The position numbers and the translations under genes are program-made. A stretch of 14,359 bases of DNA from a virus: UHGV virus genome UHGV-0236088; one strand, 5' to 3'. Each line of letters starts with the position of its first letter. The first letter of the stretch is position 1. Of the stretch, positions 241 through 13,019 are shown one piece after another. A model generated the notes under the pieces. It saw only the letters and a program-made list of their open reading frames with translations. It did not search any database and had not been told where the DNA came from.

Positions 241-267
241 AATTACAATTTCGCATTGTTAGGAAAT

Positions 268-296
268 ATTTTAATCCGTTTGTTTACGCTCTACAA
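268..296 (-). promoter_or_regulatory. Candidate sigma70 promoter (possible late promoter, pR'-like)
   Basis: Minus strand TTGTAG (296-291), 17 nt spacer, TAAAAT (273-268). Predicted start near 260, about 40 nt before the terminator T-tract. No ORF lies between it and the terminator. Confidence 0.25.
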
Positions 297-477
297 ATAC
301 GGCTTTACTGCTTTCTGTATATCAGGCCGTTATCAAGCAACATCTGCATATGCCAACGATCCATGCCGCTTGATTCCCAATATTTATTGCCCGCGCTTTG
401 TGTCATCACCTTATCACCTTTAACCAAATAGGCGATGTTAAATAACATGTGCAAATAGATACCGTCTTCGATCTCGT

Positions 478-660
478 TTATAGGTCGCTCACCCTCACCA
501 GTTTACCAGCATCAAGAAATATTTTGATTGTTTCTCGCGTAGTCTTAATGATTGGCGATACCCACTCGCCACAGCCAACGCGGATACGAATATCATCACC
601 TTCCACGCGGTAAAACAACCTGTCGACTACTGTTGCTGCGTACACACCATCTTCAATCAT
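478..660 (-). CDS. Hypothetical protein, 60 aa
   Basis: ORF track entry. AAGGAG 8 nt upstream of ATG at 660. ATGA overlap with the stop of the upstream gene. Confidence 0.5.
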   Translation of the reverse strand: MIEDGVYAATVVDRLFYRVEGDDIRIRVGCGEWVSPIIKTTRETIKIFLDAGKLVRVSDL

Positions 661-857
661 TTCTTGCGCTCCTTAATGGCCCGCATGATGTTGATGCGCA
701 TAGCATCAGCGAAAGCGTATATTGTAATGAAAGGCCAGAAAACCAACTCAAACCAAATAACGCCGTCACTACCTACAGCTTTCTGAAGAGCGCCCATTAA
801 AACTACACCAGCAAGGTAAAGGAGAACTACCGCAATAATAAGACATTCAATCATCAT
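657..857 (-). CDS. Small membrane protein, about 66 aa, two predicted transmembrane helices
   Basis: Translation is dominated by hydrophobic runs (IIAVVLLYLAGVVLMGAL and WFELVFWPFITIYAF). Tandem ATG ATG start with GAGGG upstream. Confidence 0.45.
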   Translation of the reverse strand: MMIECLIIAVVLLYLAGVVLMGALQKAVGSDGVIWFELVFWPFITIYAFADAMRINIMRAIKERKK

Positions 858-1104
858 CGCCCTCGTCTTCTTGTTCAGCTAGGAAATAATCAACTACGCG
901 GTAAGTCACTGGCGGGATGTATTCGAAATCATCCGAATCAAGATCAAGCGTCCGGCTGTCGCCGTCGTCGTCCATTGTGTTCATTCCCAACTCACCGAAA
1001 GGGCCGTACCCAATGTGGCCCAGATATTCGCAACCAATCGTAAAGCCAGGATATTCGCGTTTACATCTGACTTTATACAGCTTATTTGATGCGCTCAATT
1101 TCAA
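847..1104 (-). CDS. Hypothetical protein with a strongly acidic C-terminal half
   Basis: ORF track entry. The last 42 residues contain 17 Asp/Glu and 2 Arg. Start is uncertain: TTG at 1104 or 1098 (GAGGGG just upstream), or ATG at 984. Confidence 0.4.
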   Translation of the reverse strand: MKLSASNKLYKVRCKREYPGFTIGCEYLGHIGYGPFGELGMNTMDDDGDSRTLDLDSDDFEYIPPVTYRVVDYFLAEQEDEGDDD

Positions 1105-1405
1105 CCCCTCTGTTTTCTGCTTCAGTCATTTTGTATTCTGCAACCAGTTCAGCGCCAAGCAATTCCACTTCCATATCAGCGATACCCTGGAACATCAGAT
1201 AGGCAAAAACTAGGCTTTTAATTCTATCCAGGTCTTCAAGATGGTCTGCGTCAAAAGGCGGTTCAGATACGTGGAAGCATTTAACGTGCGCGTCGTCTTC
1301 AGTAGCCACACGGAAACATGCGCCGCGTTTACCTGCGAATTGTCCAATTTCTTTATCTTCTGGAAAAGATCCACGGAAAACTTTAACACTGATAAATTTA
1401 GACAT
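1082..1405 (-). CDS. Hypothetical protein, 107 aa
   Basis: GAAGGAGAG 7 nt upstream of ATG at 1405. No family recognised. Confidence 0.55.
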   Translation of the reverse strand: MSKFISVKVFRGSFPEDKEIGQFAGKRGACFRVATEDDAHVKCFHVSEPPFDADHLEDLDRIKSLVFAYLMFQGIADMEVELLGAELVAEYKMTEAENRGVEIERIK

Positions 1406-1428
1406 TGATTACTCTCCTTCGTAAGGAA

Positions 1429-1728
1429 TTAAAATTCAGCACCAGGTAAGCTACGCGCTTTATTTACCACATCGTGTTTTAACAATAAACTGGCGTGATA
1501 ACTTATGATCCCCATAATACCGACCTGTATTTCATCATTTTTTGACTTTATTATTAACAACTGGTTTTTAGTGAAGATCCTGTCTCCATCAGTGATATAT
1601 AACCAGTCACCACGTTTGCCAACAACAATGTGAGATCTGCCTAAGCTGTCTTTAAATTCATAATTACAGAAAACATCATCGTTAGGAACTTCAACAAAAC
1701 AGCAAGCAATAAATTTAGCGCTTTTCAT
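1429..1728 (-). CDS. Hypothetical protein, 99 aa (start moved to internal ATG)
   Basis: GAAGGGTG about 6 nt upstream of ATG at 1728 (MKSAKFIACCF...). The longer ORF-track start at 1758 has no RBS. Confidence 0.5.
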   Translation of the reverse strand: MKSAKFIACCFVEVPNDDVFCNYEFKDSLGRSHIVVGKRGDWLYITDGDRIFTKNQLLIIKSKNDEIQVGIMGIISYHASLLLKHDVVNKARSLPGAEF

Positions 1729-1771
1729 GATTACACCCTTCTGATTTGATGGGGCCATCCTGCCCCGTGTT

Positions 1772-1912
1772 TTATGCTTCTTCGCCTCCTTTAAACCCTA
1801 AGCACTCCGCGTACTCGTCAATGCTTAATGCTTCTTCACCTTGTGCCAGTAATTCAAAGTATCTTGCGTACAGTTCGAAAACCCAGGCCGGATATTTAGC
1901 GTTAGCGTTCAT
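1772..1912 (-). CDS. Small hypothetical protein, 46 aa (below the ORF-track cutoff)
   Basis: ATG at 1912 preceded by AAGGGGG. Translation MNANAKYPAWVFELYARYFELLAQGEEALSIDEYAECLGFKGGEEA. It fills the gap between neighbouring genes. Confidence 0.35.
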   Translation of the reverse strand: MNANAKYPAWVFELYARYFELLAQGEEALSIDEYAECLGFKGGEEA

Positions 1913-1922
1913 GGTTTCCCCC

Positions 1923-2195
1923 TTATGCCATACGTGCGAATTCAAGTGATTTGCATTCGTAGTCTTCCTCTGCCTGCATCACCACGTTGTTAATCATATG
2001 GTTTGCATCATCGAAGCCGTATTTTTTGGCGAATTCATCAGCACCGCCTTGGTGGTCATGCTCTGCGTTCATCGCTTCTACATAGTGGAACTCAAGATTG
2101 TTCAGGTAGGGACTAGAAACGCCGTCCTCTTTTTCAATCAGATCCCAAATTGCATTGAAGCGGGCTTTTGTTTCTTCGTTAATCCAGCGTTTCAT
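1923..2195 (-). CDS. Hypothetical protein, 90 aa
   Basis: GGAGGGTAG upstream of ATG at 2195. First gene downstream of the operator/promoter-like element at 2231-2276. Confidence 0.5.
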   Translation of the reverse strand: MKRWINEETKARFNAIWDLIEKEDGVSSPYLNNLEFHYVEAMNAEHDHQGGADEFAKKYGFDDANHMINNVVMQAEEDYECKSLEFARMA

Positions 2196-2230
2196 TTTTC
2201 TACCCTCCGCATCGTTCTCTCTTCAGCTTC

Positions 2231-2276
2231 TTTATAACAAAATGGCGCCACCAGAACAATGCCATTTTGTAAACTT
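2231..2276 (-). promoter_or_regulatory. Promoter/operator-like element, copy 1 of a repeated intergenic motif
   Basis: Minus strand TTGTTC (2259-2254), 17 nt spacer, TATAAA (2236-2231). Flanked by the inverted 9-mers ACAAAATGG and CCATTTTGT. Shares a 40 bp module with 8403-8483. Confidence 0.35.
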
Positions 2277-2293
2277 TGAAGGGTAGATCACAT

Positions 2294-2518
2294 TTATGCT
2301 TCTTCCGTAAAAGTAACCTTCATCGCCCCATCCGAACTACGGACAACATAACGACCAATACCGCCTAGCGGCCCTGCATACCATAAGTGACCGTAAGTGT
2401 CAGTCACGACGATAAACGGAAACTTAGGCGACAACCCCATCGGTTTTTCAGCCGTATACTGTGCGCCTTCTTCAAAACAGCCTAATTTCGATTCGTTACA
2501 CGTTAAAATCATTTTCAT
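2294..2518 (-). CDS. Small protein, 74 aa, member D of a four-gene tandem paralog array
   Basis: ATGA overlap with the upstream gene. Shared blocks FEEGAQY and IVVTDTYGHLWYA. Confidence 0.5.
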   Translation of the reverse strand: MKMILTCNESKLGCFEEGAQYTAEKPMGLSPKFPFIVVTDTYGHLWYAGPLGGIGRYVVRSSDGAMKVTFTEEA

Positions 2519-2754
2519 ACCCCTACATACGAAAACGCAGCAAAAGCACCACCACCAGCACGCGCATAAACAAGTGCCGTGCCATACCCCATCTTATAAA
2601 ATCGCCATAACTGACCCTGGTCGTCAGTAATGGCATGAATATATTCCTGATCCTTTGCGTCAACCAATGCCGCGCCAACCTCGTAGATCTTGCCATTCTT
2701 AAAAAACGCGCTGCATCGTGAGTATGTGCACTGGTATCTATGTTTCCGATTCAT
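2515..2754 (-). CDS. Small protein, 79 aa, paralog C
   Basis: GAGGTG upstream of ATG at 2754. Shared blocks FKNGKIYEVG and HAITDDQGQLWRF. Confidence 0.5.
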   Translation of the reverse strand: MNRKHRYQCTYSRCSAFFKNGKIYEVGAALVDAKDQEYIHAITDDQGQLWRFYKMGYGTALVYARAGGGAFAAFSYVGV

Positions 2755-2764
2755 AGCACCTCAC

Positions 2765-3022
2765 TTATTCCGGTTTACTGCCTTCGCGGGCGCAAAACTC
2801 CGCGATCTCACGGAAATCATGCACTATGCGATAAATATACAAACCAGCGGCGTTATTGATATGGCTAACATAAGCGAAATAAACTTTATCATCATCGCCA
2901 GTTATCGCCATTGCACCATCACCGCCCGGTGCGCCGTGGAGTTGAACGCCGCAATAGATCTTCCCTTCTTCAAAAATATTGCGGTCGCGCGTCTGCAATA
3001 CCTCAAAATATAAATGTTTCAT
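2765..3022 (-). CDS. Small protein, 85 aa, paralog B (start moved to internal ATG)
   Basis: AAAGGGG 6 nt upstream of ATG at 3022 (MKHLYF...). Shared blocks FEEGKIYCGV and MAITGDDDKVYFA. Confidence 0.5.
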   Translation of the reverse strand: MKHLYFEVLQTRDRNIFEEGKIYCGVQLHGAPGGDGAMAITGDDDKVYFAYVSHINNAAGLYIYRIVHDFREIAEFCAREGSKPE

Positions 3023-3032
3023 TGTTGCCCCT

Positions 3033-3245
3033 TTAATAACGTTCAAAGCTGGCAGCAAAACCTACACCGGATATTTCACCGCCTTCATAGCTCGGCCTGA
3101 ATACCCATATTTCGTCATGATTATCAATCAAGGCAAGGCAATTACTCATTGTGTGTGCTTCATTGCCATAAACGATGTGAACGTCATAAATACTCCCAAT
3201 CGTGAAAACACTGTCATTGCTTGAGTATGAGCATTTAACTTGCAT
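3033..3245 (-). CDS. Small protein, 70 aa, paralog A
   Basis: AAAGGGG upstream of ATG at 3245; TGATG overlap with the upstream stop. Shared blocks FTIGSIY and ALIDNHDEIWVF. Confidence 0.5.
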   Translation of the reverse strand: MQVKCSYSSNDSVFTIGSIYDVHIVYGNEAHTMSNCLALIDNHDEIWVFRPSYEGGEISGVGFAASFERY

Positions 3246-3496
3246 CAGAAAACCCCTTTATAATCGACCGTGTATTTTGCCACTAATTTCCATTCACAAT
3301 AGTTTTCCATGTCGCGAGGTTGCCAACCCTTCATCCCTACCGCACTCCGCGCAGCGTGACGGCGATAATAATCGTTATGGCTAGCTATGCACCACGGGTA
3401 CAGGACAAACATATATCCTGCCTCGTTAACCAGGATCGCCATCCGCTTTCCAGTTGCCTTATCTTTCGCCCGGAAATAACTTACCTTGATTTTCAT
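3245..3496 (-). CDS. Hypothetical protein, 83 aa
   Basis: GAGGTAA 7 nt upstream of ATG at 3496. Confidence 0.5.
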   Translation of the reverse strand: MKIKVSYFRAKDKATGKRMAILVNEAGYMFVLYPWCIASHNDYYRRHAARSAVGMKGWQPRDMENYCEWKLVAKYTVDYKGVF

Positions 3497-3707
3497 TTTT
3501 AATTACCTCGATCAGCATTTCTTCTTCCAGGTTAGCCGGGCGTTTACGAAATATCCCGGCAAAAACCAAATCATCCAGGTATCCTTTAGTGCAAAACAGC
3601 TTTTCTTCTCTCACCCCGTCAGAATCGCATCTATAAGCCTTTCCATTTATCAGAAAATAAAAGCTATAAGATGAAGGTGCCAGGCAAACATCCTCGTAAA
3701 CGTCCAT
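3459..3707 (-). CDS. Hypothetical protein, 82 aa
   Basis: GAGGGT upstream of ATG at 3707. Overlaps the next gene by 38 nt. Confidence 0.45.
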   Translation of the reverse strand: MDVYEDVCLAPSSYSFYFLINGKAYRCDSDGVREEKLFCTKGYLDDLVFAGIFRKRPANLEEEMLIEVIKNENQGKLFPGER

Positions 3708-3711
3708 AATA

Positions 3712-3939
3712 TTAACCCTCGACTACTTCCAGCCCGCGTCCCTTATCGCCAACGAAGTCGCCCAGGCTGAACGTATACGACCATGCCGGATTTATGTAAT
3801 GGTCATCAGCACCAGCGGCAATGAGATCAGCACCATTAATCATGCAAGTAATCTCATCGCTATGAACGACATTAACGACCTTACCAACAACCTGTTTCAA
3901 TGACGGGTAGCCGTGATCGTGCAAGAATTTAACTTTCAT
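3712..3939 (-). CDS. Hypothetical protein, 75 aa (start moved to internal ATG)
   Basis: AAGGGAAAG 6 nt upstream of ATG at 3939 (MKVKFLHDHG...). The longer ORF-track start has no RBS. Confidence 0.45.
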   Translation of the reverse strand: MKVKFLHDHGYPSLKQVVGKVVNVVHSDEITCMINGADLIAAGADDHYINPAWSYTFSLGDFVGDKGRGLEVVEG

Positions 3940-4222
3940 ATTTCTTTCCCTTGTAAGTAACAGCATCAGCGATAAGCAATACCGCCAGCATTTCTCCGTC
4001 ATGCAACGGGTCTGGAATAGCAAAAAATATGTCGCTGTTTTTGTCCGGCACTACTACGCGCATATTGCCTTGTTTGTCTTCATGAACAAACCACGGCTTT
4101 TCGTGTGGCTCAAACATACCGAAAAGCAATTTAAGATCTATTTCTTCTCCCTTCGTGAATAACGATACATCCGTTGTAGCGATAACTAACGCTTTCTGAT
4201 CTGCTGCTTTCTTTGCTTTCAT
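3929..4222 (-). CDS. Hypothetical protein, 97 aa
   Basis: GGAGG upstream of ATG at 4222; ATGA overlap with the upstream stop. Confidence 0.5.
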   Translation of the reverse strand: MKAKKAADQKALVIATTDVSLFTKGEEIDLKLLFGMFEPHEKPWFVHEDKQGNMRVVVPDKNSDIFFAIPDPLHDGEMLAVLLIADAVTYKGKKYES

Positions 4223-4452
4223 TCACCTGCCTCCCATCGGTCAATGCTGATTAAAAAGTCACGTATAGCGTGTCGTTCGTCGCGCGTTGGCTTGCGCTTT
4301 CTGTAGATCTTGAAGTCAAACCATTCTTTTTCTTGTTCGAAATCCATGTCGTAAGCAAGCGCCTCAATATATCCGCAGTCGTGATACTGGTACGCCACGC
4401 CAGCACGAACAAAAAAGCGGGTTTTATCCCGCTTGTGTTCATAAATACGCAT
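4219..4452 (-). CDS. Hypothetical protein, 77 aa
   Basis: GGGG 7 nt upstream of ATG at 4452. Confidence 0.5.
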   Translation of the reverse strand: MRIYEHKRDKTRFFVRAGVAYQYHDCGYIEALAYDMDFEQEKEWFDFKIYRKRKPTRDERHAIRDFLISIDRWEAGE

Positions 4453-4462
4453 ATTTACCCCG

Positions 4463-4693
4463 TTATGCAGTTGTGTAGCTGTCTACCAGCTTTTCATCCT
4501 TCATTCTTGCAAGCTGTGCAATGTTCATCGTGTAGCCGCCATCAGAGAAAAGCCACTCCGCAGCCTTGCGACGAAAAACAATATCATCATGGTTGTGCGT
4601 CCATGTAGCGATAACCACGCGCTTTCCGTCAGTGGCAAACATTGTTAATTCATTATCAACTACGTCGATAGCCTGCCATATTTTTAGCTCCAT
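4463..4693 (-). CDS. Hypothetical protein, 76 aa
   Basis: GGGGA 7 nt upstream of ATG at 4693. Confidence 0.5.
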   Translation of the reverse strand: MELKIWQAIDVVDNELTMFATDGKRVVIATWTHNHDDIVFRRKAAEWLFSDGGYTMNIAQLARMKDEKLVDSYTTA

Positions 4694-5049
4694 GATTTAT
4701 CCCCGTAAATTTTGAATAATTCCCGTGCTTCTTGATCTTCAAATAACTTCATATGCAGATCATGCAGGCGGCGCATTGTGCGGAAACGCGGTCGGAACTC
4801 CTGTCTGTTTTTAATAAACTTACCGCCAATTGAATAAATATGACCGTATGAATACCATCTATCCCCGACCCAAATTAGATAAATTTCACCCTCATAATTA
4901 AATTTGATTGTAAGCTCGTCAACCTCCATTATTAATCCTTTATCGAGGATATCATTCAGCATGTCGTCCCATTCTTTGAGGAATTGTTGCTGATACATGC
5001 CAAAAATTGTATTTGCAGCGTGGCAAAGGTAATCAAGGATTATTTGCAT
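4684..5049 (-). CDS. Hypothetical protein, 121 aa
   Basis: ORF track entry with a plausible GTGGTGA RBS. Confidence 0.5.
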   Translation of the reverse strand: MQIILDYLCHAANTIFGMYQQQFLKEWDDMLNDILDKGLIMEVDELTIKFNYEGEIYLIWVGDRWYSYGHIYSIGGKFIKNRQEFRPRFRTMRRLHDLHMKLFEDQEARELFKIYGDKSWS

Positions 5050-5053
5050 ATTG

Positions 5054-5266
5054 TCACCACATCATATAATAAACGTTATCGTAAGCTAATTGGTCCGCGT
5101 CTTCTTGCGTCATGTGCCGCGCTTCCAGAAAGAAATCTTCGTTATGCCATTCACAAACAAGCATTCGCGCCCATTTGCGGCGCTGGCGTTTATTGTGTCG
5201 CAGATCATCAAAAACCTTTAACGCTTTGTCATATGACCTTACCAGGCGTTTACGGTTACTTTTCAT
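5054..5266 (-). CDS. Hypothetical basic protein, 70 aa
   Basis: AGGAG/GGTGAG upstream of ATG at 5266. Arg/Lys-rich N-terminal half. Confidence 0.5.
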   Translation of the reverse strand: MKSNRKRLVRSYDKALKVFDDLRHNKRQRRKWARMLVCEWHNEDFFLEARHMTQEDADQLAYDNVYYMMW

Positions 5267-5471
5267 TTCTCACCACTCCTATTTCCTTGATCTCAATATT
5301 GCGCAACCGGACGTCGCACGGCGTTTCAGATTTACCAGTAAGCGCCAGCGTCAGGTTTTCAGGTGTCGTATAGAGAATTATCTCTTTACCCGTGCTAAAT
5401 TTAATTTCTATGCGGATCTCGCTTTCGTCGCCGCACAACACACGACTGATTGACAGGCCAGCTTTTTTCAT
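5256..5471 (-). CDS. Hypothetical protein, 71 aa (start moved to internal ATG)
   Basis: AAGGTGGGGGAG upstream of ATG at 5471; ATGA overlap with the upstream stop. Confidence 0.5.
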   Translation of the reverse strand: MKKAGLSISRVLCGDESEIRIEIKFSTGKEIILYTTPENLTLALTGKSETPCDVRLRNIEIKEIGVVRNEK

Positions 5472-5776
5472 TGCTCCCCCCACCTTAACATCCAATTCAC
5501 ATCACATTTAATTGCGAATACCTTAACAGGATCAGGGCCGAATAATGGATGCGTGATAGTTTTTACTTCGTACCCGAAATAAGGCAGGTTTATGTTCCGG
5601 TGCGCTTCGTGGCTGGCTGGATACCCCAGCTTAATGATCAGGCGTTCATATTCCCGCCCCTCCAGGCGTTTACGCCAATAGTCATTGTAAAGCCTGTATT
5701 CTTCCACCTTCTTTCCCGCCCGGATGGCGTGGAAATATTCCCCTTTCAGGTTCAAGTGTAGGTCTTTACTTGCCAT
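5468..5776 (-). CDS. Hypothetical protein, 102 aa; possible ASCH/PUA-like fold (weak)
   Basis: N-terminal HLNLKGEYFHAIRAGKKVEEYR resembles the ASCH/DUF3850 beta-barrel signature (Y/F..I..G.K..E.R). Recalled from memory only, no search run. Confidence 0.45.
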   Translation of the reverse strand: MASKDLHLNLKGEYFHAIRAGKKVEEYRLYNDYWRKRLEGREYERLIIKLGYPASHEAHRNINLPYFGYEVKTITHPLFGPDPVKVFAIKCDVNWMLRWGEQ

Positions 5777-6035
5777 CGCTATGATCCTGTAAGCAGTCGT
5801 TGTAGCCTTCGATGTATCCGGTTAATCCTGTGTTACTTACTGACCAATCAGCCGAACGGCGCTTGATGGCCTTGTCCATAGTCATCTCGTCACCTGGCCC
5901 GCCTGGCTCGATGTATTTTCTTAAATCCCTTACTATCCACGACCCTAATTGTTGCGTATCACTGCACACACGCGCCGTTAATGTCAGATTATTAACCAGC
6001 TTTGCGAATAGATGTTCTTTTAATTTAGGCTTCAT
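5766..6035 (-). CDS. Hypothetical protein, 89 aa
   Basis: GAGGTGAAGG upstream of ATG at 6035. Confidence 0.5.
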   Translation of the reverse strand: MKPKLKEHLFAKLVNNLTLTARVCSDTQQLGSWIVRDLRKYIEPGGPGDEMTMDKAIKRRSADWSVSNTGLTGYIEGYNDCLQDHSDGK

Positions 6036-6225
6036 CCTTCACCTCGCGACGATAGATTTCTACTGGCTTAACCGGAATAGCGTTAAAATCCCCTTCATCC
6101 AGTGCGGCAATAAACGTTAGCGCCAACCGTGCTTCAACACCGCTTAAATACTTGCACCATGCATCACCGTTATAATCTTCAAAAAGAATAATCACTTTTT
6201 TCATGTTTATCTCTTGTTGTTTCAT
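6025..6225 (-). CDS. Hypothetical protein, 66 aa, translationally coupled to Q
   Basis: TAATG overlap with the Q stop codon. An alternative ATG at 6204 would give MKKVIILF.... Confidence 0.45.
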   Translation of the reverse strand: MKQQEINMKKVIILFEDYNGDAWCKYLSGVEARLALTFIAALDEGDFNAIPVKPVEIYRREVKDEA

Positions 6226-8485: not shown

Positions 8486-9250
8486 TCAGTCCGGTAAAAC
8501 GCGGTTAAGCGTAGTACGATTGATGGCCCGGTCGTTAGCCAGGAATACAGCACGGGCAAAGCCGCGCGGCGTTAGTGAGCGGATCATCTTAGTGCGTTTC
8601 GACTTTCCTCCTAACTTCGCGTGCTGTTTGCTGTCTTCCCATTCATCCGGCATAGGTACAGGCCGGAATAGCGGCTGCTTAAATCCATTCCCGCACCAGA
8701 TACAAGTTTTCTTCGTGTATGCGTCGCGGTCGGCGATGTATTCCGGGAAAGCAGGATGTTTGTCGTCTTCCGGCAGGTAGCCACCGTAAGCGCACGGATT
8801 GAAGATAAAATCCGGCTTACGCCATAACGTTGACAGTGCGCCCACCGGATTTTCCACCATCCACGGGACGTGATACATGTCAGCCAGCGTTTCTACCAGT
8901 TTTGCGTTATATGCCGCCTTCACCTGGAAGTCAGGATCTTTTTCACGCTTGCTGGCAAACCAACGAGCGCCGGACACGGCTAGATGGTCGCATGGCGGGA
9001 AGGCCAGAATAATGTCAGGATCTGGATAAACAGACAAATCAGGGGAGAACATCACCAGGAAATGGCTGTCAATCCATACGTTAACGTATTCAATATTCGG
9101 ATGAATGATTTTTACGCCTTCATAGTCGCCGTGGTTAGCGCCGTCATAGTTGAAGCAATAACACTTATAGCCAGCGTCAGCCCAATCTTTAACGGCGTAC
9201 CCGCTGCCGTCGTACAACGACCACACCACCCAATTTTTAAGCCCGCTCAT
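8486..9250 (-). CDS. C5-cytosine DNA methyltransferase-like protein (short, atypical motifs)
   Basis: 254 aa. Motif I-like SLYDGSGYAV, followed by AGYKCYCFNYD; motif IV-like AFPPCDHLAVSG (PPC where PCQ is usual); motif VI-like MVENPVGALS (ENP where ENV is usual). GAGGG RBS. ATGA overlap with the upstream gene. Confidence 0.5.
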   Translation of the reverse strand: MSGLKNWVVWSLYDGSGYAVKDWADAGYKCYCFNYDGANHGDYEGVKIIHPNIEYVNVWIDSHFLVMFSPDLSVYPDPDIILAFPPCDHLAVSGARWFASKREKDPDFQVKAAYNAKLVETLADMYHVPWMVENPVGALSTLWRKPDFIFNPCAYGGYLPEDDKHPAFPEYIADRDAYTKKTCIWCGNGFKQPLFRPVPMPDEWEDSKQHAKLGGKSKRTKMIRSLTPRGFARAVFLANDRAINRTTLNRVLPD

Positions 9251-11248: not shown

Positions 11249-11452
11249 TTAAACGTCCTCAATTACCCCGCCTTTCACGCGCTCTTTAATATCCCATACG
11301 TGAGGCTTGCATATTTCTTGATAGTAGTGATCCGGCCTGCTGCCGAAATACCATTTGCCATCCATATAAAAATAAACGCCAGAAAAATTTCCTGGCGCTG
11401 CCTTTGTTGCTGCTTCTGGAATTTTCCATTCCATGTAATGTTTAAATATCAT
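11249..11452 (-). CDS. Hypothetical protein, 67 aa
   Basis: ORF track entry. The RBS is distant, so the start is uncertain. Confidence 0.4.
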   Translation of the reverse strand: MIFKHYMEWKIPEAATKAAPGNFSGVYFYMDGKWYFGSRPDHYYQEICKPHVWDIKERVKGGVIEDV

Positions 11453-11636
11453 GAGTTTTTAAATAACCCCTTCTGAATGCTTTGATGTAAAGTCCTAGCC
11501 TTCTTATATGCTGAACGCCATCAATGATGCGCACTAAATAAATTGCACCATTTGTGTCAGATACAAAATGACAGCCAAAACCAATACCAACCAACTTCAG
11601 GTTGTCAGGTATTCTATAATCAGTTTTCTGTTCCAT
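11442..11636 (-). CDS. Hypothetical protein, 64 aa
   Basis: GAGGTGAGG upstream of ATG at 11636. Confidence 0.5.
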   Translation of the reverse strand: MEQKTDYRIPDNLKLVGIGFGCHFVSDTNGAIYLVRIIDGVQHIRRLGLYIKAFRRGYLKTHDI

Positions 11637-12052: not shown

Positions 12053-12673
12053 TTAATGCAGTACACGTTTTCCCTGTTCAGGCGTCGGCTGTGCGTTTTT
12101 CCGTGCGTCATTAAGCACAGCGATAGCCGCCTGTACGCCGAAATCATTTGCACGCATATCATTGCCAACCATTTCACCGTAAAACAATGGCATGAGCGAT
12201 TTTACTTCTTCCTCTTTGTGGCCTTCCTCAATGTATTTCTGCAACATCTTAACCTCAAAGATATTTTTCATCAGGCCGCGCATAGAATGCAGTGAAACAC
12301 TACAAAGCTGATCCTTGTTCAACGGGAAAATAACAGCACTTCCGAACGCGAGCGGATCAACCTCTTCCGGCACTGGTACGCGTCCGAATTCTTCCTCCAT
12401 GCGCTTCACAAAAGTAAGAGAGAATACATAACGCGCTACCGATGTTTTTTCTTCCATACTTAAAGACACGTAATCGCGGATTGACGCCCCCATCACAATA
12501 TCAACAACCTGTAGCGCCAGATTCAAATCAGCGTCATACGCGCCAGCTTCCATATCTTTCAATACTTCGTGATAATCTTTAATTTCCACTTCGTGAAAGT
12601 TTGCATCATCTGTATAGCGAGTGATCAACATACCTTCATTACCGAGAGAGTAAGCTGTTTTGATGTCGTTCAT
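12053..12673 (-). CDS. Hypothetical acidic protein, 206 aa
   Basis: Longest unassigned ORF. AAGGA RBS before ATG at 12673. No family recognised by eye. Confidence 0.55.
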   Translation of the reverse strand: MNDIKTAYSLGNEGMLITRYTDDANFHEVEIKDYHEVLKDMEAGAYDADLNLALQVVDIVMGASIRDYVSLSMEEKTSVARYVFSLTFVKRMEEEFGRVPVPEEVDPLAFGSAVIFPLNKDQLCSVSLHSMRGLMKNIFEVKMLQKYIEEGHKEEEVKSLMPLFYGEMVGNDMRANDFGVQAAIAVLNDARKNAQPTPEQGKRVLH

Positions 12674-12686
12674 GATATTTATCCTT

Positions 12687-13019
12687 TTATAGTGGGTGAT
12701 GCCATTTCATTTCTGTTTCTGAATTAAGCGGGTTTCCTTCGCTTGAAAGGAATAAATCACGCTCCCGTTTCAGTTCTTCCGGGCTTATTTCTATTTCATC
12801 AATCTGACCGAACGATCCCGGCATCATTCGTTTTAAATCAGATAGCGGACGCATAAGGCCGCAGCCGCGTAACAGCATATCGACCGCGAATTGTCTACGT
12901 CCGGCGGCGTCATTAAAGCGCCGTGCCCAGGGCACAACCACGATCCTGCGTTCGAATTCGATAAATAGTGATAGCTTGTTTGTTTCGCTATCATATGCTA
13001 TATGGAATTTAATTTTCAT
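12687..13019 (-). CDS. Hypothetical protein, 110 aa
   Basis: GAGGTG upstream of ATG at 13019. Confidence 0.5.
   Translation of the reverse strand: MKIKFHIAYDSETNKLSLFIEFERRIVVVPWARRFNDAAGRRQFAVDMLLRGCGLMRPLSDLKRMMPGSFGQIDEIEISPEELKRERDLFLSSEGNPLNSETEMKWHHPL

Follow-up and report, generated by a model that had tools for sequence, protein, structure and literature searches.

A fixed-order cassette of anciently diverged small paralogues in an mEpimmI-group coliphage, with a predicted Gp54-like fold

Four consecutive small genes of a temperate coliphage are, on the evidence of sequence profiles, anciently diverged paralogues of one small protein, and models of two of them share a predicted fold whose one other known example is Gp54 of Escherichia phage Bas11. 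The DNA analysed is a 14,359-nucleotide stretch of virus genome UHGV-0236088 (the window), which belongs to a temperate coliphage of the mEpimmI group (mEp021-like). The explanation we favour combines paralogous six-stranded barrels, a collinear cassette and a binding-protein mechanism; taken as a whole we consider it probable, though not strongly so.

A reading of the sequence alone had described four consecutive genes of 70–85 aa at 2294–3245. The open reading frames are there, tightly packed on the minus strand:

3033–3245, minus strand: member A, 70 aa (MQVKCSYS...FERY), acidic, pI 4.6
2765–3022, minus strand: member B, 85 aa from the ATG at 3022
2515–2754, minus strand: member C, 79 aa, pI 9.2, the sole basic one of the four
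2294–2518, minus strand: member D, 74 aa; starting at the ATG at 2512, as most orthologues do, gives 72 aa

The stop codon of the upstream gene overlaps the start of A by 1 nt (TGATG), spacers of 10 nt containing AGGGG and GAGGTG separate A from B and B from C, respectively, and the stop of C overlaps the start of D by 4 nt (ATGA). Every start in the array has either a Shine-Dalgarno sequence or a start/stop overlap. For B, the AGGGG lies 5 nt 5′ of the ATG at 3022, and the NCBI orthologues are 85 aa long; the mechanical ORF, which begins at an upstream TTG, is 97 aa. Mean dN/dS within orthologue groups is 0.06–0.21 (A 0.21, B 0.13), a purifying regime that, together with these start signals, marks A–D as genuine genes. 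Whole-gene dN/dS gave no positive selection in the orthologue groups, and the host-driven selection suggested earlier was not demonstrated; the visible variation consists of gain and loss of whole members and of a few variable loops. The proteins are small, single-domain and 8–10 kDa in mass. Inspection of the sequences by eye showed no N-terminal hydrophobic segment in A–D, and we therefore take them to be cytoplasmic. None of the four matched Pfam (E up to 1), NCBIfam or PADLOC (E up to 0.1), in agreement with the initial impression of an unrecognised family.

Pairwise identity among A–D is 16–29%. In a first set of profile comparisons, which comprised A–D and their close orthologues only, hhalign linked A to C (P 5.6e-6) and B to C (P 6.3e-6), making C the hub of similarity inside the window. 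D scored P 0.03–0.04 against each of A, B and C, and 6 of 2000 shuffled sequences reached its score against an A+B+C profile, so that on this set its membership was suggestive. Intermediate subfamilies, E1/E2, F, X and D2, were found in the same slot of related prophages, and these tie D to A, B and C: BLASTP aligned D with E2 at 36% identity over 44 aa (E 4e-5), and hhalign joined D to E at P 6.3e-5. Subfamily profiles of the enlarged family gave hhalign P values of 4e-6 for A–C, 6e-6 for B–C, 7e-8 for C–E, 1e-9 for A–E, 4e-8 for A–F and 2e-10 for E–F. With each subfamily left out of the profile in turn, the window members scored 27.0 (A), 15.1 (B), 43.0 (C) and 13.4 bits (D); scores across subfamilies ranged from 13 to 45 bits, and none of them was reached in 2000 shuffles. 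Whichever member was left out, it ranked first among the window ORFs once the members used for the profile were set aside. The proposal of repeated duplication and divergence is thus upheld by profile links, intermediates and leave-out recovery. The expected profile linkage held directly for A–C and B–C, and D joined only through the intermediate subfamilies. The duplications appear to be old, since DNA-level repetition in the array amounts to one 17-nt match.

Orthologues of A in E. coli prophages are 63–99% identical, and word-indexed protein searches with a four-sequence profile, or with D as sole query, found nothing but E. coli orthologues, all at least 63% identical. A profile search of 1.8 billion proteins added one divergent A-like protein, P0070, and did not retrieve the D group; its other matches were to the block-2 hairpin in repeat proteins and were rejected as non-homologous. 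With the A+B+C profile, no PDB sequence scored below E 0.6. Two further window ORFs, 3929–4222 and 11442–11636, reached only E 0.03–0.05 and were not accepted as members.

The two motif blocks reported from the sequence are present exactly as quoted. Across the family, the conserved positions are a Cys in strand 1, F-x-x-G-x-x-Y opening strand 2 (block 1), a D-x-x-G turn followed by Trp or Tyr (block 2) and a C-terminal Phe, and judged by residue type they look like core and turn positions. B has its own peculiarities: Tyr replaces the block-2 Trp, strand 1 has no Cys, and the C-terminal extension is longer. Variation is greatest in the loop separating block 1 from block 2, most clearly among A orthologues, and in a Gly-rich loop. 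The latter had been taken for a Gly-rich tail in each protein; it is really the loop between strands 5 and 6 and is absent in B. Block 2 (h-h-x-D-x-x-G-x-h-W/Y) is in itself a generic β-hairpin signature that also matches RCC1-type and 'DDxGxIWxFW'-type repeats in large unrelated multi-repeat proteins, the second of which look like β-propeller blades by their sequence. The family alignment extends beyond it, from strand 1 through strand 6.

Models of C and D, built from separate alignments and with no templates, are six-stranded β-barrels with a long strand 1–2 loop, and the common fold anticipated for the family is thus seen in two independently modelled members. The five D models ranged in pLDDT from 40 to 83.5. 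For both proteins the top structural match by a wide margin was Gp54 of Bas11 (PDB 9AXB; Pfam PF25180, 'Phage antiviral trigger protein Gp54'), likewise a six-stranded barrel with a prominent strand 1–2 loop, whose topology its authors termed very rare in 2024 (PMC11578894). SH3, Tudor and KOW barrels have five strands and a 3-10 helix in place of the sixth (PMC11578894), and their structural scores were far below the Gp54 match. Gp54 is also a small (66 aa), acidic and dispensable phage accessory protein, and by eye its F-x-x-G before strand 2 and its G-x-x-W hairpin occupy roughly matching positions. It is non-essential and without known activity, and the CapRelSJ46 immune sensor binds it directly through a surface made of strands 2–5 and a refolded strand 1–2 loop, including G24, I25, S39, L41 and W43 (PMC11578894). 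From the strand order, these contact residues would lie approximately at family blocks 1 and 2. CapRelSJ46 does not respond to the closely related Gp54 homologues of SECphi27, Bas5 and Bas8 (PMC11578894).

The two systems also differ. Gp54 is encoded by a single gene in a virulent T1-like phage, whereas here four tandem paralogues occur in a temperate mEpimmI phage, and the interval from block-1 Gly to block-2 Gly, counted from the sequences, is 16 residues in Gp54 and 22–27 in the family (6–11 longer). No A–D hit to PF25180 was obtained at E up to 1 (the gathering score is 27 bits and Gp54 itself scores 116 bits). The A+B+C profile against the Gp54 alignment gave an hhalign P of 0.33, the family HMM scored Gp54 at −1.3 bits, every subfamily profile gave P 0.14 or higher, and no significant link emerged through candidate T1-like intermediates. 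Because sequence homology to Gp54 is undetectable, the shared fold could be convergent in so small a barrel.

Several other phage protein families show sequence similarity to the array members. PHROG 31142, which is unannotated, corresponds to subfamily E1 of this cassette (153 bits) and also matches F (3e-9), P0070 (7e-7), C (E 1e-5) and A (E 8e-5); B, D and X give no match to it, and it covers the family only in part. A motif pattern of K-C-x-x-S, F-x-x-G-x-x-Y and h-h-x-D-x-x-G is common to T1p58-like proteins (PHROG 4927), bas11_0071 (PHROG 9181) and the C-terminal half of bas11_0048 (PHROG 2684). SA12KD_78, recorded as similar to T1p58, scored 27.8 bits with the family HMM and P 1e-8 by hhalign; against the family, bas11_0071 gave 6e-5 and the C-terminal half of bas11_0048 gave 1.7e-4, and the PHROG 4927 profile matched A at E 0.027 and C at E 0.018. 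On these sequence comparisons the T1p58-like proteins are a related family, not the same one. All three types are dispersed single genes in virulent Drexlerviridae, in contrast to the tandem array here. A tblastn search with F and P0070 across 50,697 phage records found only mEpimmI phages and one weak T1-like hit, which was confirmed by HMM.

The array occupies a variable stretch flanked by the Q antiterminator gene and the lysis genes. The interval from Q to the holin is about 6 kb here against about 2 kb in mEp021, in which the array is entirely absent, and the region is accessory, as had been supposed. Pfam searches with 19 other ORFs between Q and the holin returned nothing, and the whole window had no Rfam match. 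A survey of copy number in related prophages had been proposed, and a census of 36 related loci found 0–5 members per phage. Their order is always F-E/X-A-B-C-D, with eight subfamilies in at least 11 natural arrangements. D, the last gene of the cassette, is found in nearly all arrays. Among phage isolates, MagusPhagus carries five members, mEp010 three and mEp021 none. Of 5426 complete E. coli genomes, only some 35 contain a phage of this type, and most of the D-C-B-A arrangement is present in about 10. The prophage of E. coli FAH (NZ_CP116035.1) matches the array region at 99.5% identity.

We infer that the proteins are most plausibly non-enzymatic binders of host proteins, possibly acting on host defence, because Gp54 binds a protein, most members are acidic, and no enzyme or defence domain was hit. 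Having no catalytic motif, A–D would act as stoichiometric binding proteins, each paralogue presenting a different surface on the common scaffold and so binding a different host protein during lytic growth. Counter-defence would be the leading candidate role, and a target in a rival phage is also conceivable; the authors of the Gp54 study speculate that it inhibits another defence system (PMC11578894). By analogy with Gp54, such barrels could also be recognised by host immune sensors, for example by the CapRel antitoxin domain. The anti-defence or 'receptor-like binder' role put forward in the sequence-only reading is a conjecture, and its sole circumstantial support is the analogy of the Gp54 fold. 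If the array genes are late (Q-dependent) rather than expressed by delayed-early read-through, a role against early-acting defences would be less likely.

The array lies upstream of the holin and endolysin genes and shares their strand, and its products might be auxiliary parts of the lysis module. They would then be standalone SH3-like barrels with a modulating effect on the endolysin or an affinity for the cell wall, as proposed for DUF7244 (PF23896). Proteins of that family are small, all-β and encoded upstream of lysis genes. They belong to the SH3 clan, in 188 of 522 Drexlerviridae they are encoded next to the lysis cassette, and a part in assisting lysis has been hypothesised for them (PMC13164509). 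The family profile has a weak similarity to one of them, bas11_0041 (DUF7244 by Pfam; hhalign P 1e-4). However, DUF7244 proteins are five-stranded, of SH3 type, and lie immediately beside the holin, whereas the array lies at a distance of about 2 kb and eight genes, with a strong terminator-like hairpin (240–221) immediately before the holin. A–D had no match to PF23896 (E up to 1) or to other SH3-clan Pfam models, and lacking a visible N-terminal hydrophobic segment they would not reach the periplasm before lysis. Furthermore, mEp021, an isolated phage with purified virions, is entirely without the array (PMC11893012), and the lysis role of DUF7244 is itself a hypothesis. We consider a lysis function improbable.

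Alternatively, the products might be small nucleic-acid-binding barrels of the Sm, KOW, Tudor or cold-shock-like kinds, with a regulatory effect on transcription, translation or DNA transactions in phage or host. The basic character of C is compatible with such a role, as is the location of the array, which follows the Q antiterminator in the genome's regulatory arm. Most members are nonetheless acidic, with pI 4.2–6.0 for A, B, D and subfamilies D2, E2, F and X and exceptions only in C (9.2) and E1 (7.7). No nucleic-acid-binding family was matched, and the sole known interaction of Gp54, the best structural match, is with a protein (PMC11578894). We consider nucleic-acid binding improbable.

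The genes might instead be prophage-expressed 'morons' whose benefit goes to the lysogen and not to lytic growth of the phage itself, for instance by superinfection exclusion or by protecting the cell from other phages. In favour of this, the phage is temperate and occurs in chromosomes as a prophage (PMC11893012), its array region consists of variable accessory DNA, a structured hairpin lies 3′ of gene D, and in mEp010 (locus L002) an annotated terminator at 2310–2354 lies just downstream of the D-type gene. Against expression from the prophage, promoter-like sites were no commoner than in shuffled sequence and none preceded the array, which is packed head-to-tail with the flanking genes in one long same-strand run. 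PADLOC gave no match, and an 8-kDa barrel with no effector domain is an unlikely stand-alone defence, so this role, too, seems to us a poor prospect. Lastly, that A–D are unrelated and arrived at a generic β-hairpin motif by chance or convergence, as their low identity, the promiscuity of block 2 and the non-significant scores of D against A, B and C on their own might suggest, is essentially refuted by an alignment spanning all six strands, the leave-out profiles, the intermediates bridging D to the others, the independent C and D models matching the same rare fold, and the fixed order of all subfamilies in the same genomic slot.

For the binding-protein reading, a broader form can be drawn, which we regard as speculative and on balance rather doubtful: Gp54-fold barrels would be a general class of phage counter-defence binders, and the cassette a combinatorial toolkit in which each paralogue neutralises a separate host immune sensor or effector, and immune sensors such as the CapRel pseudo-zinc-finger domain would have evolved to recognise the scaffold. 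If this were true, the family would explain why Gp54 exists and would provide a natural set of variants for mapping sensor specificity. Our results indicate that the Gp54 fold is the scaffold of a wider, largely unannotated set of small accessory proteins. This set occurs in temperate phages of the mEpimmI group and, on sequence links, extends to T1-like phages, among them Bas11, which encodes several such relatives beside Gp54. Even if the genes prove dispensable and without phenotype, about 1 kb of phage 'dark matter' would be usefully annotated. The fixed order and variable membership of the cassette constitute a natural experiment, in which the targets of the barrels, and whether they inhibit immunity or trigger it, become directly testable.

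The array consists of four consecutive minus-strand ORFs within window positions 2294-3245, here called A to D. It lies between the Q antiterminator gene and a holin/endolysin cassette at the low-coordinate end of the window.

3033-3245, minus strand, ORF, member A, 70 aa
2765-3022, minus strand, ORF, member B, 85 aa counted from its ATG
2515-2754, minus strand, ORF, member C, 79 aa
2294-2518, minus strand, ORF, member D, 74 aa
6225-6947, minus strand, Q antiterminator (Pfam PF03589, 102.8 bits)

All genes of the window lie on the minus strand. The stop codon of the preceding gene overlaps the ATG of A (TGATG), the A-B and B-C gaps are each 10 nt long and contain the Shine-Dalgarno sequences AGGGG and GAGGTG, respectively, and the start of D overlaps the stop of C (ATGA). 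The sequence-only reading had described a paralogous array sharing two motifs, block 1 (F-x-x-G-x-[I/Q]-Y) and block 2 ([I/V]-[T/D]-[D/N]-x-x-[G/D]-x-[L/V/I]-[W/Y]); every motif string it gave occurs in A-D exactly as given, and its observation is confirmed and extended here.

At 86-88% identity, the window as a whole matches Escherichia phage MagusPhagus and mEp010, mEp013, mEp021, mEp044, mEp515 and mEp554. These phages are the 'mEpimmI' Nus-dependent, non-lambdoid temperate siphoviruses (PMC11893012). The array region (2200-3300, 1.1 kb) is 99.5% identical to a prophage in E. coli strain FAH; 26 complete E. coli genomes show some match to it and 10 match at least 80% of it, and the Q gene of the window is carried by about 35 of 5426. 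The interval from Q to the holin (256-6225, minus strand) spans about 6 kb in the window versus about 2 kb in mEp021, and none of the 19 other ORFs tested there matched Pfam. Across mEpimmI phages this run of uncharacterised small ORFs is a hotspot for changes in gene content; the mEp021 homologue of 3459-3707 carries an annotation as a virion structural protein found by mass spectrometry (PMC11893012). Residues 136-183 of Q match the DnaJ CXXCXGXG zinc-finger domain at 26 bits, below the 32.7 cutoff. A second paralogue pair flanks the Q/methylase region: a 76-aa protein (4463-4693, minus strand; no Pfam match) and a 110-aa protein (12687-13019, minus strand), which align over 65 aa at 29% identity (BLASTP within the window ORF set, E 1.7e-6). 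The pair recurs in MagusPhagus, mEp010 and mEp021.

Taken as four sequences alone, A-D are 16-29% identical in pairs, and C searched against the window ORF set found A at E 0.002, B at 0.02 and D at 0.24. We gathered orthologues of each member for profile tests. With close orthologues included, hhalign linked A to C (P 5.6e-6) and B to C (P 6.3e-6), and D to each other member at P 0.03-0.04; 6 of 2000 shuffles scored as high as D against the A+B+C profile. Related prophages carry extra subfamilies in the same slot, out of reach of the sequence-only reading: E1 and E2 (71 aa each), F (74 aa), X (94 aa) and D2, a form of D that shares 57% identity with it and carries a different sequence in its C-terminal half. 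These bridge the family, and their evidence is decisive. BLASTP joined D to E2 (36% over 44 aa, E 4e-5), C to E2 (E 4e-5), C to F (E 1e-5) and E1 to F (E 3e-8), and hhalign joined D to E (P 6.3e-5), A to E (P 1e-9) and E to F (P 2e-10). When each subfamily was left out of the profile in turn, its real score was reached by none of 2000 shuffles.

Scores of each subfamily against the profile built with it left out
A: 27.0 bits
B: 15.1 bits
C: 43.0 bits
D: 13.4 bits
E: 45.4 bits
F: 38.3 bits
X: 18.2 bits

The hhalign links, bridging subfamilies and leave-out profiles bear out the claim that the array is a tandem cassette of diverged paralogues; that the resemblance arose by chance is extremely improbable. 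The full family alignment spans the proteins end to end, with h-x-C-x-x-S in strand 1, F-x-x-G-x-x-Y at the start of strand 2, h-h-x-D-x-x-G-x-x-W/Y-x-F in the strand 3-4 hairpin, then a Gly-rich loop and a last strand with an invariant Phe. At the DNA level, the only repeat among the copies is a single 17-nt match between the strand 5-6 regions of A and C, and any duplication is therefore old. Among 70 ORFs, the best non-member matches to the family HMM were 3929-4222 (minus strand, E 0.03) and 11442-11636 (minus strand, E 0.05), neither significant; by eye both carry F-x-x-G and h-x-D-x-x-G-like motifs and may represent highly diverged barrels of this type.

Copy number was surveyed in 36 loci (the window, 3 phage isolates, 6 complete E. 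coli genomes, 23 IMG/VR contigs and 3 NCBI assemblies), with ORFs assigned by subfamily HMMs. Members are present or absent within a single conserved order, F - E/X - A - B - C - D. D occurs in 34 of 36 loci (truncated in 2) and is invariably last.

Arrangements in the census; frequencies are biased because the IMG/VR loci were chosen for carrying C
A-B-C-D: 11 loci (D truncated in 2)
E-C-D: 6 loci
X-A-B-C-D: 4 loci
F-E-C-D: 4 loci
X-A-D: 4 loci
F-E-B-C-D: 2 loci
E-B-C-D: 2 loci
E-A-B-C-D: 1 locus
E-A-D: 1 locus
A-B-C: 1 locus (C truncated)
none: 1 locus (mEp021)

Pairwise mean dN/dS within orthologue groups was 0.06-0.21: these genes are genuinely protein-coding, and purifying selection acts on them. 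Divergence is highest in A (dN 0.15), whose orthologues vary chiefly in the loop that separates block 1 from block 2. Inside C, a different frame (2523-2696, minus strand) contains a 57-aa ORF that is open in all related loci. Database proteins P0014, P0028 and P0034 fuse the C N-terminus to this frame, and the annotated mEp010_63 (133 aa, mEp010) joins it to D2; such fusions are probably frameshifts or assembly/gene-calling artefacts.

Promoter-like sites showed no excess in the window (11 found versus 14.9 expected from shuffled sequence), and none lay in front of the array. The array genes are accessory and subject to purifying selection; they share the orientation of the neighbouring genes and sit close against them. 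That they are morons benefiting the lysogen is improbable. Only two intergenic gaps between Q and the holin are long. One of them, 98 nt directly downstream of D (2196-2293, minus strand), has a fold more stable than that of shuffled sequence (-28.9 kcal/mol, z -2.8), in which CUACCCUUC pairs with GGAGGGUAG at the Shine-Dalgarno sequence of the following gene (1923-2195). mEp010 has an annotated Rho-independent terminator (2310-2354) just downstream of its D-type gene. The folded gap of the window could be a terminator or a translational control element that marks the cassette 3' end. Just upstream of the holin start, a strong terminator-like hairpin (240-221, minus strand; 7-bp stem, 6 of its pairs G-C, followed by a T-run) corresponds to terminators that are annotated for mEp021 and mEp010 at the equivalent place. 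It may be a tR'-like terminator acted on by Q, in which case the late promoter would lie far from the Q gene.

Structure prediction, made without templates, gave C and D, the two members modelled, the same small six-stranded barrel. The AlphaFold2 model of C, on the A+B+C alignment, reached pLDDT 75.6; the best D model, from D orthologues only, reached 83.5 with the same strand order, the remaining four scoring 39.8-75.8. The barrel is that of Gp54, the phage Bas11 protein bound by the CapRelSJ46 immune sensor (PDB 9AXB), released in 2024; the AlphaFold2 weights are older. Against BFVD, Foldseek returned many small proteins (TM 0.6-0.7, E only 0.003 or weaker) that are uncharacterised and come from T1-like or other enterobacterial phages.

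Gp54 (sequence from MZ501085) belongs to Pfam PF25180 (116 bits), which A-D do not match, and profile-profile comparison with Gp54 was not significant (P 0.33; at least 0.14 for all subfamilies). The fold is therefore what the family has in common with Gp54, the sequence membership test having failed. By eye, Gp54 has F21-K-K-G24 ahead of strand 2, resembling block 1, and G40-L-T-W43 in the strand 3-4 hairpin, resembling block 2; counted from the sequences, the family is 6-11 residues longer between the two block glycines. G24, I25, S39, L41 and W43 contact CapRel, and G24D is an escape mutation (PMC11578894). From strand order rather than superposition, these contacts would correspond to blocks 1 and 2.

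The family does connect, at the sequence level, to small proteins of T1-like phages: T1p58-like SA12KD_78 (PHROG 4927; 27.8 bits, hhalign P 1e-8), bas11_0071 (6e-5), bas11_0041 (DUF7244; 1e-4) and the C-terminal half of bas11_0048 (1.7e-4). The E1 subfamily corresponds to PHROG 31142, which also has weak matches to A, C and F. Bas11 (MZ501085) thus encodes, besides Gp54, at least three small proteins similar in sequence to the family, bas11_0071, bas11_0048 and bas11_0041 (at 20148-20339, 12579-12944 and 8760-8930). On visual inspection, bas11_0048 resembles a tandem pair of barrel domains; T1-like phages, too, seem to have several copies of such barrels. NCBIfam and PADLOC gave no match to A-D. 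We found no paper discussing the family, nor any mention in the searched passages of the mEpimmI paper. The family is a variant of the Gp54-type small barrel that is distinct in sequence, lacks annotation and has expanded into a combinatorial cassette of tandem genes.

As for function, we infer that the family lacks a catalytic signature. Judging by residue type, the conserved positions seem to fall mainly in the core and the turns, with some loops variable, and Gp54, the only characterised protein with this fold, works solely through binding to a protein partner (PMC11578894). Stoichiometric binding is therefore the most likely mode: A-D would bind host proteins, or possibly rival-phage proteins, each paralogue with a separate target. 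Counter-defence is the leading candidate role, put forward with fairly low confidence; the authors of the Gp54 study speculate likewise for Gp54 (PMC11578894). The earlier suggestion of host-driven selection and defence inhibition is unproven, and the fold lends it circumstantial support. All sequence-linked relatives are annotated 'unknown function' except DUF7244, proposed without experiment as an SH3-type lysis-module accessory (2026 paper, PMC13164509); inspection of the family sequences by eye revealed no N-terminal hydrophobic segment, and a lysis-accessory role for A-D is unlikely. Nucleic-acid binding is doubtful as well: C is basic (pI 9.2) and E1 near neutral (pI 7.7), and A, B and D (pI 4.6-5.7) and D2, E2, F and X (pI 4.2-6.0) are acidic, in a family of 7.8-11 kDa.

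The array does not represent a new type of system; it sets the Gp54 fold in a broader context, and the cassette supplies a concrete, testable panel of natural variants.
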